From the IMG/VR virus record IMGVR_UViG_2548876961_000016: a stretch of 9,442 nt of DNA, one strand, 5' to 3'. The DNA is from a virus. Its lineage: Duplodnaviria; Heunggongvirae; Uroviricota; Caudoviricetes. The translations under genes were made by a program, and so were the position numbers. The notes under the pieces were generated by a model. The model had not been told where the DNA came from, ran no database searches, and saw nothing but the letters and a program-made list of their open reading frames with translations. This document shows positions 231-9,442 of this stretch, piece by piece. The stretch's first letter is position 1. Each line of letters begins with the position of its first letter.

Positions 231-291
231 AGATCAACACGCTTTAACCGTTATCATTTTCCGGCCATCCGTTATGAAGCTGGTGGATGTT

Positions 292-396
292 CCCCGATAT
301 GGGTATCCCCACCTACCTGGCTTTTTTTCCGGTTAAATGTTAATCAGGCTGGTGGCCTTTACATACCCTTGATCACGGTAATGATGATTCAGGTGC
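292..396. repeat. Copy A of a roughly 105-bp direct repeat
   Basis: About 95% identical to 818-933 over the shared core CTGGCTTTTTTTCCGGTTAAA(T/C)GTTAATCAGGCTGGTGG(C/G)CTTTACATACCCTTGATCACGGTAATGATGATTCAGGTGC. Copy A carries a deletion in the leading palindrome. Confidence 0.7.
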
Positions 397-817
397 GTAC
401 CTTTTCCCCAGTGGGGTAAAAGCTCCAACCGTAACGATGTTCGTTGTGGTTGCCTTGATGGTCTGCGTGGTCATTATGACCATTCAGAATTTGAAGGGTG
501 ATGTTTCCGATCTCCTCAAATTGAGGATTGTGGAAGAATCAATGGGTTAGTCTTACTTTCCCAACATCCCCCAATGGGGGTTTTCGAAATAATCAATGGG
601 TTAGGCCATAGTGCAATTTTGCACTATGGAACAATTCCAACCAGTTATCGGCATCAGGCCCACCAGCCAACGCAATTTTGCGCTTTGCTTTAATCTCAGT
701 AAGTTACCGCGCCAATTTCCGCAGTCTGTGGAAATTGGGAAGAATCAACGGGTTAGGCTGGTTTCCCCGATGTTCGCCGCTGGCGAATTTCGAAAATATC
801 AACCAGTTACCGCCGTA

Positions 818-933
818 TCCCGATATGGTGATCCCCATATCGAGATTGGATACCTGGCTTTTTTTCCGGTTAAACGTTAATCAGGCTGGTGGGCTTTACA
901 TACCCTTGATCACGGTAATGATGATTCAGGTGC
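818..933. repeat. Copy B of the roughly 105-bp direct repeat
   Basis: See copy A. Begins with the CCCGATATGG..CCATATCG palindrome-like element and ends with ...GATTCAGGTGC. Confidence 0.7.
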
Positions 934-936
934 TTC

Positions 937-962
937 CCCGATATGGTGATCCCCATATCGGG
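937..962. repeat. Perfect inverted repeat CCCGATATGG-(6 nt)-CCATATCGGG just downstream of the 307-aa gene
   Basis: 10-bp arms. Related copies at about 819-844 (right arm 8/10) and about 293-312 (right arm degenerate). No U-tract follows on the minus strand, so it is not a canonical terminator. Confidence 0.6.
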
Positions 963-978
963 ATAGATGCTGGAAAAA

Positions 979-1902
979 TCAGCTTTTCGCCAGAACGGTG
1001 ACGGCCTTATCGAGTTTTTGCCATCCGCAATAGGTGATTGCCCTGAACGCTGTAGCGTCATTCTGGAAAAGGCTAACCGCCCCTGATTCGGTTTTTATTA
1101 CCGCCTCATCAGTTGGGGTTATAACCGTGGCTTCAACGTTAATAATCAGCTTTTGAGCGTCTATCAGCATCATGCGATCCGCCTGTTCGCTCACAATTAC
1201 CGGTATTCTCAAAAGCTCTATCTGCCAGAACTCAGCATCAGTAAGCTGTAAGGCGTTTTCTACGGGCAATATTAGCGACGACGTGGAAAGCGTGTTACCG
1301 TTCGCTATGTGCTTTTTGAAAATCTCTATGAAGTTTTCGGCCTCATCAGCACCATTAAGCACGCCCTCAGGGGATACGCCAGCCACCTCCTGATCACTGG
1401 AAAGAAATTTTTTATCTATTTCTTTCACCGATTCCGATGTGATCAAGTCTCTGATCGCTGAATTTGTACCAGGGGTGCTAAATTTGATTAGCTCGTTATT
1501 CAGCATCACAATAGCGCCAAGTTTGCACAATTTTAGCGCACTTTCGTTTACTTCTCCCTCTTTGACAGGGATTTCTTCGGCTTCTTTAAGCCATTTACTA
1601 CCCTTGCCTGATATTGAATGCAATTTTGCGCCAAACGGAAGATTAAGCGCGCTGCTGATTAGCTTGCCTGGTACAGACTGCGAAAAAATATACTCGCCAA
1701 GCTCTCTTACTATCGGCTCTGCCACCAGCGACGGCATGTTATCCGTAGTCATTCTGTTGACGATGGATTTTTCAAGAAATTTCGATACTGCCGGATCATT
1801 TCTTTTCGTCATCTCTATAGCGTCAGCATGGCTAAATTTACACGATGCCAGCACGCTGGCGGCGCGAACTGCTGACACGCCTTTCATGTTTTTACAGATC
1901 AT
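979..1902 (-). CDS. Putative HK97-fold major capsid protein homologue (307 aa); product call tentative
   Basis: Strong RBS (AGGAGGAGGAAGAAG before the ATG). A central segment (LGAIVMLNNELIKFSTPGTNSAIRDLITSESVKEIDKKFLSSDQEVAGVSPEGVLNGADE, then SSLILPVENALQL) follows the conserved HK97-family pattern (SdELl.ds...sYi...L......E...fLnGdGtg..p.Gil, then sGivlNP.dw..i). Judged by eye, not by search. Confidence 0.55.
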   Translation of the reverse strand: MICKNMKGVSAVRAASVLASCKFSHADAIEMTKRNDPAVSKFLEKSIVNRMTTDNMPSLVAEPIVRELGEYIFSQSVPGKLISSALNLPFGAKLHSISGKGSKWLKEAEEIPVKEGEVNESALKLCKLGAIVMLNNELIKFSTPGTNSAIRDLITSESVKEIDKKFLSSDQEVAGVSPEGVLNGADEAENFIEIFKKHIANGNTLSTSSLILPVENALQLTDAEFWQIELLRIPVIVSEQADRMMLIDAQKLIINVEATVITPTDEAVIKTESGAVSLFQNDATAFRAITYCGWQKLDKAVTVLAKS

Positions 1903-3483: not shown

Positions 3484-3530
3484 TTATTTTTACCCCCCTC
3501 GTTTAAAAAGTTTTAGGTTGTGGTGCACCT

Positions 3531-3756
3531 CCTCTACCTCTTCTACCTAATCATCTTTCAGGTCAGTAATGGCGCGGCTTTCAGATGGGTAGAGGACTTT
3601 TCGTGGCCCTCTACCCATCCTCTACCCGCCCCTCACAAACGACCTTAATCATGGTAGAGGGGGTAGAGGGGTTTTATTAGCCTTCTACCTATCCCTCTAC
3701 CCACTTATCATGTTGAATAATATGCGTTTATTTCATTCAGGTAGATGGGGTAGAGG
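3531..3756. repeat. Iteron array (about 10 copies of GGTAGAGG / CCTCTACC in both orientations): putative origin of replication
   Basis: CCTCTACC at about 3531, 3608, 3619 and 3694; variants CTTCTACC at about 3541 and 3682; GGTAGAGG at about 3588, 3653, 3662 and 3749; variant GGTAGATGG at about 3740. Several copies are 9-12 bp apart, with AT-rich flanks, immediately downstream of the primase stop. Confidence 0.6.
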
Positions 3757-3770
3757 GCTTTTACAAAAAA

Positions 3771-5519
3771 TTATAAAAACGCGTCACAATCATCCGTTGT
3801 AATTGCGTTGGTCTGCGTTACTCCCTTAACTTTTCGCGTAATATATTCATGTCCGTAAACTTTCGCCGCTGGCTTCATGGCCTTGCTGAAATCAGCCACG
3901 TTTAGCGGCTTGCTTCTTCCTGCGTATGCCATAAACGCCAGATAGACGCGGTAAAGGCTGTTTCTGGTCGTGTACTTCACGGAATCGCCACCGCCACCCA
4001 TCATCAGGCCGCGCGCTTCCTCCAGAAAATTCAGGAACTGGCAAAACTCAATAACCGGATCTGTCTGTTGCTTTATCGCCAGTGCTTCATCACCGTCGCG
4101 CTGTTCCAGTAATAAAGCCCGTGCCTTTTCAGGGTCAGCAAAATTAGCCAGCAAGCGGCGGATAATCACAGGGATTTCAGCCGCGACCTTCTCCGGCAAA
4201 TCCTTGTCCTTTTCTGCCTCGCTAACGATATTGTCAAAGCGAAAAATAACCCGACGACGTGCCACGCCTCCGGCCCGTTCGGTGAATATCATCGGGTTGT
4301 TGTTGGTCGCCAGCACCACCGCCCTGATTACCGCCGTGAAACGCTTTTCATATTTCGGGTTAATTTCCACGGGGTCGCCGCCCGTGATTTTCTTGATGCC
4401 CGTTCCTTCGCCTGTATATTTCGGCTGGTCAGCCAGGACGATAAGACGACTCCCGACAACCTGCGCGCGCCCTCCTGCATCATCGAGTGATGTCATCTCC
4501 GCGCTTACGGTGTTCTGTTTCCCTGCCAGAAGGCTGGCTATGTGTGTGAATGTACTTTTACCGCTCCCGCCGTCTCCGGTGGCCTCAATAAACATCTGCC
4601 AGTCGTACCGGTTCGCCATAATCATGTACAGCGCGGCACATATACGCATCATCTTGCGCGGGTCTTTTCCGGCTGCGTGCTCAAGCCATTTATGAAAGTT
4701 TGGCGCGTTGTCGCGAATGTTCTCCCCTGGTGCTGGTGGCGTGTACTCAATGCCGTTGTGCGTGGTGATCCAGTTCTCCGGCGTGTGCGGGGAAAATTCC
4801 CCCGTTTTCAGGTCAAGTGCACCATTGGCGAACGGCAGCAAATCGCCGGACGGCTCCCCCATTGGTTCGGCAATAACTTTTAACGCTTCAACGGCGTTAT
4901 TGATCACGCGTTTGCTGAAAGTGGCCCTGTGCTCTGAATAGATCGCCACCATTTCGCGGCTAAGTTCCATTGTGCTGACCGGACACCATACCCCGCCGCG
5001 CCATACGTGAACGATTTCACTTTCAGGATGTACGCAAACGCCATCAAAGCGATCGGCAAGCAGCTGGGCGCGCTCACTGTCTGCCATTTGTGCCAGTTGC
5101 GTATTTTTCTGCTCCGGCATGGTAAGCCCTGCGGCAATATTTTCACGCTCAGCATTCAGATAGCGCCGCCAGTTTTCACACTTCTGACCGTGCATTCCTT
5201 CGGGGTAAAATTTTGCATCCTGTACGCCTGCCGCCGCCAGCTTCTGACCAATCTTTTTGGTCTCCACCAAGTCCAGTTCTCCTGCCTGGTACAGCCTTAC
5301 GCGTTTTTTTCCATCAGGAACAATTTGCAGTGCATAAAGTTCGGCAAGCTGATTTGGCCCAAGCCACACAGGAGGCACATTATCGCCGGATGCGGGGCCG
5401 TCCTGCTCCTGCCACTGTTTTGCATGTGCCCACGCATCACTACCCGCGAAAATAATCACCTCTGTGTCTTTGTGTTTTATTCCGCGTGGCTGTTTTTTTA
5501 CGTTCGGTGCCAGTTTCAT
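3771..5519 (-). CDS. Replication initiation primase/helicase (phage/plasmid primase, P4-family C-terminal NTPase type)
   Basis: 582-aa ORF with Walker A GDGGSGKST at residues about 315-323 and a candidate Walker B (RLIVLADQ). Its size and its position upstream of an iteron array match satellite and P4-like Pri/Rep or alpha proteins. Confidence 0.85.
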   Translation of the reverse strand: MKLAPNVKKQPRGIKHKDTEVIIFAGSDAWAHAKQWQEQDGPASGDNVPPVWLGPNQLAELYALQIVPDGKKRVRLYQAGELDLVETKKIGQKLAAAGVQDAKFYPEGMHGQKCENWRRYLNAERENIAAGLTMPEQKNTQLAQMADSERAQLLADRFDGVCVHPESEIVHVWRGGVWCPVSTMELSREMVAIYSEHRATFSKRVINNAVEALKVIAEPMGEPSGDLLPFANGALDLKTGEFSPHTPENWITTHNGIEYTPPAPGENIRDNAPNFHKWLEHAAGKDPRKMMRICAALYMIMANRYDWQMFIEATGDGGSGKSTFTHIASLLAGKQNTVSAEMTSLDDAGGRAQVVGSRLIVLADQPKYTGEGTGIKKITGGDPVEINPKYEKRFTAVIRAVVLATNNNPMIFTERAGGVARRRVIFRFDNIVSEAEKDKDLPEKVAAEIPVIIRRLLANFADPEKARALLLEQRDGDEALAIKQQTDPVIEFCQFLNFLEEARGLMMGGGGDSVKYTTRNSLYRVYLAFMAYAGRSKPLNVADFSKAMKPAAKVYGHEYITRKVKGVTQTNAITTDDCDAFL

Positions 5520-7453: not shown

Positions 7454-8222
7454 TTTTACGTTTTTGTTGAGATTCACGCCCCAAATACTTTTGCCATGTC
7501 TGCCAATGTGTTTTTGGAAATTCTATCCCTCTGGATGCAGCTATAGAATCAATTAAATCTGCTATTTTAGGTAATGATTCCGTGTCCAGGTCTACATCAC
7601 CCATTTCTGGAATAAGTTTAATTAAAGAGTAAATAACCTCATTCCTTTTTGACGATGCTTTTGGGCTATCTTCTGTTATCTTCGGGAAGTCTCCCGTATT
7701 TTTTATATTATCTAAATCACTAGCCATCACACACAAATAGTTAACATCAAATTCATAACCACCCTTACAAAAAACATACATGAGATTATCATCACCATAC
7801 TTATTCGTAAGATGAGAACATTTTATATATTGTCTCATGCTAAATTCGACATCAGCAAAAACATATGCCGGAGTATAATAAAACCCTGATAAGCTGCTAA
7901 CATAATAACATTTGATAGAATTCCCTACAGGACCAATAATGGCACTATCTAAAAATTCAGTGTCACCAGTTAAACCAACTGTAAAATTACTTCCAAAAAC
8001 AGCAGATTCATCATTGAAAGGATATTTTATTAATTCTTCCTCATTACAACCATTGATAAAATGACATAATGAAAAATTGAATTTTTTAGCATCAATTTTT
8101 GGTATATATACAGAAATATTAAGAGCACCTATATATGCGTAATGATAAAGATCTTTTATTGCACAGCCTAACTTTTCTGCCGCTTCAGGTAACGGATAAT
8201 AGAGTCTTTTAGGTAATTTCAT
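7449..8222 (-). CDS. Hypothetical protein, AT-rich cargo gene in the int-alpA slot; N-terminal HTH-like segment, remainder unrecognised
   Basis: 257-aa ORF whose start overlaps the integrase stop by ATGA. Residues 5-35 (LYYPLPEAAEKLGCAIKDLYHYAYIGAL) resemble an excisionase/MerR-like helix-turn-helix; the rest is Tyr/Phe/Asn-rich with no motif I recognise. G+C looks much lower (roughly one third, by eye) than flanking genes (about half). Followed by a hairpin plus U-tract (7358-7392). Confidence 0.65.
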   Translation of the reverse strand: MKLPKRLYYPLPEAAEKLGCAIKDLYHYAYIGALNISVYIPKIDAKKFNFSLCHFINGCNEEELIKYPFNDESAVFGSNFTVGLTGDTEFLDSAIIGPVGNSIKCYYVSSLSGFYYTPAYVFADVEFSMRQYIKCSHLTNKYGDDNLMYVFCKGGYEFDVNYLCVMASDLDNIKNTGDFPKITEDSPKASSKRNEVIYSLIKLIPEMGDVDLDTESLPKIADLIDSIAASRGIEFPKTHWQTWQKYLGRESQQKRKK

Positions 8223-9442
8223 TTGGCCACCTTCAGCATAACAATATTTTCATGATTTCCAGCCAGCACATCGAGGCGCTCAACCCATAGATTAAGAGCG
8301 TCACGTTTTGCATCAAGATAACGGGAGTGATTATAGACTCGTTGCATTCCTGGCAACTGGTGCGCGGTAAGCTGCTCCACAACATGCGGTTCCACGCCTA
8401 AATCGTTCAGCATCGTTGTAAACGTGTGCCGGATGTCGTGCAACGTCCAGGGGGCTTGATTAATGCGTCTGTGTGCCGTTCTTCCGTACTCTGATACGGA
8501 TGATTGCCCTTTCAGTTCTCCGAGCAATAAGCCCGTGTGCCTGTTCTGCTCCACCAGCTTCATGACAAACGGCAAGATCGCTTCCGGTATTGGCCTGAAT
8601 ATTGCTACCTTCGTTTTGCTGTGTTCTTTCGGCACGGTCCAGAGCATTTCTTTAAAATCCCATTCCTGGACCTCAGAGCGTCTTAGCTCAGTGGTACGAC
8701 ATCCGAAGACAATCAGGAGGCGAATCAGGGCGCTGTAGTACGGTGGGTAAATTTTTTCATCAAGGGCGCGTAGTAATTCCCCAAGCTCCTTGTTTGTTAG
8801 TACGCGCTCGCTTATTTCTGCTTTTTTCCCAACATCACCGACAACCATATCATCAAGAACGTTGCTGATTGCGTATCGTCGTTTTCGGCAGTACTTAAGC
8901 GCCTGTTTGCATACCTGTAGCAAAAATCCGGCTGATACCGGATTACGCTTAGCAAGCTGGTCAAAACAGGCCAGCCAGTGGCGTAGCTCGCATTTTTCCA
9001 GTGGCATAGCTCCAATCTGGCTAATTATGTGTTTATTGATCCGGCTTTTCAGTGATTCGTAGTCAGTGCGCTTTTCCTTTGCGTACGATTCAAGCCAGTA
9101 AGTGAGCGCTTCCTTAACCGTCACGGGGGCTAACGCGTCCTGTACAGCATGATTAAGTTCATAGCGCGGATTTTTCCCCTCAGCCAGCCATGCGCGACAT
9201 TGCGACGCTTTTTCCCTGGCTGCTTTCAGGCTCAAATCTGGATAATTTCCCAGCCTCAGACGTTCAGGTGATATCTGCCTACCAGTTCCGGACCTGTAAG
9301 TGAAATACCAGGTTAACAGGCCATTGGTTGAATGCCTTACGCTAAGGTTGCCACCATCATTAAAAAAGGTGCTTTTTGTGGTTGGTGATCCGCTTAATTT
9401 TCGTAAAAGAGTGTCGCTAAGTCTATGAATTGCCCTGCTCAT
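8219..9442 (-). CDS. int: Tyrosine site-specific integrase (P4/CP4-57-type phage integrase family)
   Basis: 407-aa ORF. C-terminal catalytic region has the His-x-x-Arg box (LHDIRHTFTTML) and a tyrosine-containing tail (RVYNHSRYLDAKRDALNLW); an upstream Arg box is present (FGCRTTELRRSEV). The ATG is on the last bases of the window, so promoter, att site and any longer N-terminus are not visible. The stop overlaps the next gene start (ATGA). Confidence 0.9.
   Translation of the reverse strand: MSRAIHRLSDTLLRKLSGSPTTKSTFFNDGGNLSVRHSTNGLLTWYFTYRSGTGRQISPERLRLGNYPDLSLKAAREKASQCRAWLAEGKNPRYELNHAVQDALAPVTVKEALTYWLESYAKEKRTDYESLKSRINKHIISQIGAMPLEKCELRHWLACFDQLAKRNPVSAGFLLQVCKQALKYCRKRRYAISNVLDDMVVGDVGKKAEISERVLTNKELGELLRALDEKIYPPYYSALIRLLIVFGCRTTELRRSEVQEWDFKEMLWTVPKEHSKTKVAIFRPIPEAILPFVMKLVEQNRHTGLLLGELKGQSSVSEYGRTAHRRINQAPWTLHDIRHTFTTMLNDLGVEPHVVEQLTAHQLPGMQRVYNHSRYLDAKRDALNLWVERLDVLAGNHENIVMLKVAK

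Follow-up and report, generated by a model that had tools for sequence, protein, structure and literature searches.

In the window, that is, the whole stretch of 9,442 nucleotides analysed here, positions 504-812 form a non-coding array of six modules with a fixed internal geometry, which are homologous to a short segment of the roi genes of lambdoid phages, lie near one end of a chromosomal island, and occur in related islands irrespective of their packaging type. Comparison of the sequences indicates that the modules are copies of a cis-element located within codons ~43-57 of roi/Rha-family genes, and we interpret 504-812, with moderate confidence, as a composite binding platform derived from roi modules. 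The best overall explanation, to which we assign roughly an even chance, is that the array would provide a platform, for docking or as a decoy, to which IHF (a DNA-bending protein of the host) and the Roi proteins of helper phages bind. A preliminary description of the region, made from the DNA letters alone, had envisaged a multi-protein binding platform, either a cos/pac site or an analogue of the P4 cis replication region (crr), or else a structured non-coding RNA; its general idea of a platform fits the combination of dyads and IHF sites found here, but its specific cos/pac, crr and RNA proposals do not.

Modular architecture and geometry of the array

The starting point for this analysis was a 14-nucleotide motif, AATCAAYGGGTTAG, three copies of which had been noticed in the non-coding region. 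All three are present on the plus strand at 537-550, 591-604 and 743-756 (the last ends at 756 rather than at 757 as originally given), no further copy exists elsewhere in the window even when two mismatches are allowed, and three matches were reached in none of 200 dinucleotide-preserving shuffles of the window (mean 0.12). The 14-mer AATCAAYGGGTTA and a fourth copy of the motif, TATCAACCAGTTA at 797-809, are each exact matches to the established IHF consensus WATCAANNNNTTR. Exact matches to this consensus number four, at 537, 591, 743 and 797, all on the plus strand and all within 270 bp (537-809), while 0.55 are expected over the whole 9.4-kb window and four were obtained in 0/200 shuffles. 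Two degenerate copies of the motif are located at 635-647 and 692-706. When genome contigs were scanned, the 15-mer GAATCAAYGGGTTAG matched only at scattered single sites in bacteria unrelated to this host, and these matches were judged to be random.

Each motif copy is preceded by a palindrome, so that 504-812 resolves into six units, and the six palindromes occupy 513-527, 568-580, 606-629, 671-682, 712-738 and 773-787. The inverted repeats GTGCAATTTTGCAC (611-624) and CGCAATTTTGCG (671-682) and the hairpins CCCCCAATGGGGG (568-580) and 401-422 had been located correctly in the preliminary description, where GTGCAATTTTGCAC appeared without the longer palindrome at 606-629 of which it is the core, and from which the palindromes at 513-527, 712-738 and 773-787, as well as the fixed distance between motif and palindrome, the fourth and the two degenerate motif copies, the identity of the motif as the IHF consensus and the 88-bp direct repeat described below, were absent. 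Its three copies of GCAATTTTGC do not exceed chance, as 57 of 200 shuffles also reach three with one mismatch allowed, and the copy at ~1620 lies within the capsid-like gene and is unrelated to the array.

In order along the plus strand, unit A (504-550) comprises the palindrome TCCTCAAATTGAGGA (513-527, centred at 520) and the exact IHF consensus AATCAATGGGTTA (537-549), and unit B (558-604) comprises the palindrome CCCCCAATGGGGG (568-580, centred at 574) followed by the same consensus AATCAATGGGTTA at 591-603. Unit E (606-650) has a 24-nt palindrome, CCATAGTGCAATTTTGCACTATGG (606-629), and the degenerate motif TTCCAACCAGTTA (635-647), and unit F (671-710) has the palindrome CGCAATTTTGCG (671-682) and the degenerate motif AATCTCAGTAAGTTA (692-706). 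Unit C (712-756) carries a 27-nt palindrome with one G-T mismatch, CCAATTTCCGCAGTCTGTGGAAATTGG (712-738), along with the exact IHF consensus AATCAACGGGTTA (743-755), and unit D (761-812) combines the palindrome TTCGCCGCTGGCGAA (773-787) with the exact consensus TATCAACCAGTTA (797-809).

The palindromes differ in sequence between units, and their centres lie ~17 nt upstream of the motif. Among 35 distinct units collected from nine islands and eight roi alleles, the dyad centre is 16.5-18 nt upstream of the motif in 30 and exactly 17 nt upstream in 22. At the six innermost pairs of the dyad, symmetry is retained in 19 to 31 of the 35 units with at most three pair types per position; displacing the centre leads to a sharp loss of symmetry, and changes occur on both arms with the symmetry preserved.

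The host island and its relatives

Positions 1-106 of the window are host DNA present in essentially every Escherichia coli genome, whereas the remainder is an island that O157:H7 and O103:H2 strains carry between clpS and cspD. Its gene set identifies it as a phage-inducible chromosomal island (PICI): it encodes an integrase, AlpA, a primase with an adjacent origin and packaging-interference genes, measures ~10 kb and occupies a specific att site. All of its genes are on the minus strand, including those for the integrase (8219-9442), AlpA (PF05930; 7133-7357), a primase of the D5_N type (3771-5519), a small terminase subunit (TerS) with a Terminase_2 domain (within 2065-2688) and a 307-aa HK97-type capsid homologue (PF05065; 979-1902). 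The island encodes no portal, protease or large terminase subunit, and its capsid homologue resembles Ccm, the protein that redirects capsid size in cos-type SaPIs. No tRNA or tmRNA gene was found in the window.

Several other sequence features of the island bear on how its non-coding DNA may be read. The iteron GGTAGAGGR is present in 11 copies, in both orientations, and in the whole window is confined to 3530-3757, directly downstream of the primase gene, a segment that is very likely the replication origin of the island; none of these iterons occurs within 106-980, which does not agree with the earlier proposal of a P4 crr analogue. Repeats of the form GTAAC(T/C)TTT are found at 2324-2398, within the N-terminal coding part of terS, and at 2576-2600, just upstream of its start, and may serve the TerS of the island as a pac site or operator. 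Just inside the island boundary, at 174-239, ATTAACTACACC is repeated twice and CACGAACAA three times in tandem; ATTAACTACACC is also present in islands integrated at phoQ, and these repeats are probably arm-type integrase sites of attP.

The array is situated within an 870-bp non-coding stretch (107-978) at the end of the island distant from the integrase gene, and the whole region is bracketed by an 88-bp direct repeat, termed D1, whose two copies (314-401 and 851-938) are 95% identical. The first copy, on the plus strand, contains the promoter-like sequence TTTACA-16-AATGAT (358-385) and is preceded by a partial palindrome at 293-311; promoter-like sites in the region are at chance level (three found versus 2.3 expected). 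The second copy, likewise on the plus strand and part of a segment at 816-964, lies between two copies of the palindrome CCCGATATGGTGATCCCCATATCG(G/A)G, at 819-846 and 937-964, and is oriented into the 3′ end of the capsid-like gene. At 293-401 and 816-964, the repeat is flanked by copies of the palindrome CCCGATATGGTGATCCCCATATCGGG. A homologous D1 segment occupies the matching position in two related islands (L002 and L003), and related islands have the repeat in a single copy only.

Between the first repeat and the array, the hairpin CTTTTCCCCAGTGGGGTAAAAG (401-422, plus strand) opens a ~150-bp block that is conserved among islands, with 398-550 being 91% identical in many O157, O145 and O55 genomes. 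This hairpin precedes a putative small open reading frame (ORF) of 37 codons plus stop (437-553, plus strand), which would encode the hydrophobic peptide MFVVVALMVCVVIMTIQNLKGDVSDLLKLRIVEESMG and whose last codons and stop overlap unit A, the stop being inside GGGTTAG. The frame is open in five island loci, with variable C-termini, and has no Pfam or PHROG match; since the DNA of its N-terminal part does not differ between the five loci, this conservation is uninformative about coding.

Homologous non-coding arrays are found in other E. coli islands, at the matching end and in the matching orientation. The islands concerned are integrated beside phoQ, in the mdtJ/ydgV region, near narP and inside a prophage portal gene. 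The last of these (L130, 1763-3365) resembles a "helper-embedded" PICI and still carries the array. The packaging modules of the islands that carry similar arrays are of three different kinds: a full capsid-forming set of HNH, TerS, TerL, portal, protease and capsid genes (L002), a module of Nu1-like TerS, capsid and decoration genes (L003), and TerS with a capsid homologue, as in the present island. Within these arrays, the 60-nt unit D is identical in L002 and L128, and hence in three islands of differing type and integration site, and unit F is also present in L002. In L003, a lambda-like cosN, GGGGCGGCGACCTCGCGG, lies ~350 bp past the array, beyond a 93-aa gene; the lambda-like cosN/cosB segment GGGGCGGCGACCTCGCGGTTTTTATCTGTTTATGAGAATTTTCCGG there (8700-8750) is placed between the 93-aa gene and the Nu1-like terS. 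The 93-aa gene (phrog_1561) abuts the array in most islands and was considered as the source of a binding partner, a candidate that was rejected because the present island has the array without the gene. Window positions 395-830 were matched in 1386 of 5426 complete E. coli genomes, or about one quarter, a count that includes matches to roi genes.

Homology to a module within roi genes

The origin of the units was traced by a sensitive BLAST search of window positions 250-980 against 50,697 phage records, in which every one of the 74 matches is in a lambdoid phage gene, whether roi or a gene for a Rha-type "DNA-binding protein" or an anti-repressor. Each of units A, B and C has its own matching roi allele, at 86-98% identity; the best identities are 90-98% over 43-57 nt, but most pairs of unit and allele are only 86-91% identical, with short exact stretches. 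Unit A is 90-91% identical to the roi segment of JLK-2012, Lahn2 and Stx1a phages and 98% identical to that of phi330. Unit B is 87.5% identical to the segment in VT2-Sakai, HK629 and PA phages, and its palindrome class also occurs in allele P0045. In Stx1_14040-type phages, unit C corresponds to a Rha-family "DNA-binding protein" gene containing CAATTTCCACAGaCTGTGGAAATTG, although by itself the BLAST match is weak (37 nt at 86.5%, E = 0.06), and unit D resembles the module of roi allele P0054, GCGCCAATGGCGAA. Unit E has no counterpart among the phage records searched. More generally, searches of the phage and IMG/VR data revealed no roi counterpart of units E and F or of the common terminal class composed of CGCAATTTTGCG and TATCAGCAAGTTA: of the 72 IMG/VR loci matching the CGCAATTTTGCG class, those with a recognisable context are island arrays, the others being unrelated, and in 0 of 72 does a Roi homologue lie within 1.5 kb.

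All nine roi alleles that were read, comprising HK022 roi (L219, 4656-5378) and the alleles in L005, L132-L134 and L215-L218, contain the palindrome-plus-IHF module at codons ~43-57 of genes whose products have an N-terminal Rha domain (PF09669). Their palindromes are allele-specific, namely CCTCAAATTGAGG, CCCCCAATGG(T/G)GG, CAATTTCCACAGaCTGTGGAAATTG, CCTGCATTGCAG(G/C) and GCGCCAATGGCG, and the exact IHF consensus follows at a common offset in eight of nine. Five palindrome classes are common to island arrays and roi alleles, with end-to-end alignment. In HK022 roi the module reads CCTGCATTGCAG and then AATCAATGATTTA, and in this phage the palindrome and the plus-strand IHF consensus each occur once per genome, together, inside roi. 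The entire 40.7-kb HK022 genome has only three exact IHF consensus matches, two of them in the integrase region at ~20.2-20.5 kb and the third in roi.

Codon usage argues that the IHF consensus is under selection as DNA even within roi. The codons that make up the IHF core are fixed, with Ile54 written as ATC in 8/8 and Leu57 as TTA in 8/9 alleles, whereas five other conserved leucine columns of roi use three to four codons each and TTA in 0 of 45 instances.

The islands carry the module but not the gene. When four Roi proteins were compared by tblastn with this island and with nine related loci, only residues ~37-78 were matched. Stops occur throughout the six frames of 100-1010, except in an ORF at 678-1001 and the small ORF at 437-553. 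A decayed roi gene was considered and rejected, in view of the stop-filled frames and the presence of only the module segment of roi; the array lies outside any Rha-family (PF09669) coding sequence and is a non-coding derivative of the module.

Clerget and Boccard reportedly found in 1996 that HK022 Roi binds within its own gene, at a site closely linked to an IHF site, and that IHF stabilises this binding; we infer that the sites they mapped are the palindrome and the consensus described here. In some Stx-type phages (L133, L215 and L217), the module-bearing Rha-family gene directly follows cI and cro, the position occupied in lambda by the replication genes. This is the arrangement of the Stx phages of types Eru6, Eru7 and Eru9, which encode a Rha-family protein at the position of the replication module beside cI (PMC8951638), and the related Rha proteins of phi80 and P22 are described there as inhibiting phage growth in IHF mutants (Henthorn & Friedman 1995, as cited in PMC8951638).

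The N-terminal domain of Roi has no sequence match in the PDB, and its assignment as a winged helix is based on Pfam PF09669 and on model topology. In an AlphaFold model, the Rha domain (mean pLDDT 80) consists of a strand-helix-helix arrangement followed by a beta-hairpin wing, for which Foldseek returned only weak winged-helix matches (best E = 0.1). The palindrome encodes the hypervariable residues 45-52, which make up the first strand of the modelled wing, and the IHF site encodes the (I)NGLG segment at the tip of the wing. If the wing aids DNA recognition, one might speculate that operator and recognition segment are written in common nucleotides, in which case the roi operator and the Roi wing segment would change together.

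Possible function and comparison with known systems

On the docking or decoy reading, IHF would occupy and bend the modules, and during lytic growth of a lambdoid helper a Roi-type protein would bind the module with the matching dyad; the presence of several dyad classes would allow one satellite to engage several helper types. The helper regulator might then be sequestered, or it might be recruited to the end of the island beside attL, and we hold sequestration by a decoy with low confidence only. The lambdoid phages that carry these roi genes are likely the helpers of the satellite. In a more specific and less probable version, the array would be a collection of operators serving as decoys or docking sites, each unit mimicking the self-operator of a different helper Roi allele with IHF as a co-factor, so that a single satellite could trap or exploit the Roi of many lambdoid helpers. 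Because units E and F and the CGCAATTTTGCG plus TATCAGCAAGTTA class have no roi counterpart in the data searched, at least part of the array must bind another partner, or none. It also counts against the model that only one or two modules per island would match each Roi allele, and neither a gene nor a regulated promoter is evident as a downstream output of the array. A plasmid reporter that contains only the alpA promoter region of another E. coli PICI responds to the helper (PMC11773190), and the present array is therefore probably not the induction switch.

Among the alternatives, a non-functional recombination scar is unlikely. Pieces of roi would have entered by illegitimate or short-homology recombination between island and prophage and have been kept neutrally; the units are clearly related to roi DNA, identity to roi in one island (L131) reaches ~20 nt upstream of the palindrome, and island ends are known to accumulate accessory DNA. 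Yet the islands never contain any part of roi other than the module segment, and units of at least three alleles stand in tandem and in a single orientation, with unit D, as noted above, identical across three dissimilar islands. The palindromes and IHF matches are moreover intact, and sometimes more perfect than in the phage (CCCCCAATGGGGG versus CCCCCAATGGTGG), in the absence of coding constraint. Selection on a cis-element would fit this pattern better than neutral scars.

An accessory replication element, fired or enhanced by a helper Rha-family protein in the way that the lambda origin lies inside the O gene, is quite unlikely. This analogy draws on the frequent presence of IHF sites in replication origins and on the roi dyad ATCCTCAAATTGAGGAT, which resembles the lambda ori iteron ATCCCTCAAATTGGGGGAT, as well as on the location of the Rha-family gene in Eru6, Eru7 and Eru9 phages (PMC8951638). 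However, the island possesses its own primase and a typical iteron origin, the array contains no iterons, each roi gene has a single dyad rather than an iteron set, and no evidence ties Roi to replication. The GC content across the array is 42-51%, an ordinary composition, with no AT-rich unwinding region adjoining.

We consider it very unlikely that the units are homology patches through which the island recombines with helper roi, by Red/Orf/Rap or RecA, to yield packaged cointegrates. The best identities to roi (90-98% over 43-57 nt) and the recombination genes ninB and ninG that flank roi in these phages would suit such a role, but most pairs of unit and allele fall short of this level and share only short exact stretches, the island has its own TerS, probable pac site and origin, and what is conserved is the geometry of dyad and IHF site, not raw sequence.

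A role at the RNA level is similarly improbable. In this scheme, a plus-strand transcript from the promoter of the 88-bp repeat would form hairpins that constitute a structured non-coding RNA, serve as attenuators or make up the 3′ end of the small-ORF mRNA, in keeping with the promoter-like site at 358-385 and with the end of that ORF inside unit A. A single strand of 395-830 does fold much better than shuffled sequence (z = -5.9), but perfect palindromes fold alike on both strands and alone account for the folding, so that the score does not separate the readings. The number of promoter-like sites does not exceed chance, the region contains no terminator-like site and no Rfam match (the sole Rfam 15 match in the whole window is a chance hit to SNORA5 at 7536), and the modules recur inside protein-coding roi genes with a codon choice that preserves the duplex IHF consensus, which points to sites in duplex DNA rather than to RNA folding.

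That the array is the cos or pac packaging site of the island is extremely improbable despite its proximity to the packaging genes and the IHF site within lambda cosB (PMC9026076): lambda cosN (GGGCGGCGACCT) has no match in 1-1100, and its sole one-mismatch match in the window, which is at chance level, lies inside the primase gene with flanks unlike lambda, whereas the arrays accompany HNH/TerS/TerL, Nu1-like TerS plus lambda cos, and Terminase_2 TerS modules alike, the separate cosN beyond the 93-aa gene means that the array is not cos in L003, and the GTAAC repeats in and upstream of terS are the better pac candidate.

The array has its closest counterpart in HK022 roi, which has the same architecture and spacing as an island unit, a dyad followed by WATCAANNNNTTR 17 nt on. 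HK022 carries one such module, which is coding and appears to lie next to the gene of its presumed binding protein, while the island carries six tandem non-coding modules of several dyad classes and no roi gene. The array and P4 crr are both repeat-rich, non-coding and several kb from the primase gene. The crr of P4 repeats the ori iterons bound by the alpha protein, whereas the GGTAGAGGR iterons of the island origin are absent from the array. In lambda cosB, lambda attP and P1 parS, IHF sites are interleaved with the sites of specific proteins at fixed spacing, as in the array, although the array has no terminase R sites, cosN or ParB boxes and is separated by 400-700 bp from the att core, with the arm-type repeats (174-239) lying between.

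The roi alleles that the array matches belong to Shiga-toxin phages, and any effect of the array on helper lytic growth could consequently bear on Stx phage biology; the array also offers a concrete candidate DNA target for Roi proteins. The PICI literature searched contains no description of such arrays and no paper linking PICIs with Roi. Satellites are already known to target helper proteins with proteins of their own and to have copies of the packaging sites of their helpers: the helper cos is present in P4 and in cos-type SaPIs, and lambda-like cosQ/cosN, together with Rpp, in E. coli PICIs (PMC9026076; bioRxiv 10.1101/2022.09.08.507074). The island resembles these elements in that a satellite holds a copy of a cis-acting DNA site of its helper, but it differs from them in that the copied site comes from a regulatory gene, roi, and is assembled into a multi-allele array. 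A satellite equipped with arrays of the helper regulator's own operator would represent a different form of helper-satellite interaction, one mediated by cis-acting DNA and involving the poorly understood Roi/Rha proteins of lambdoid and Stx phages together with host IHF.
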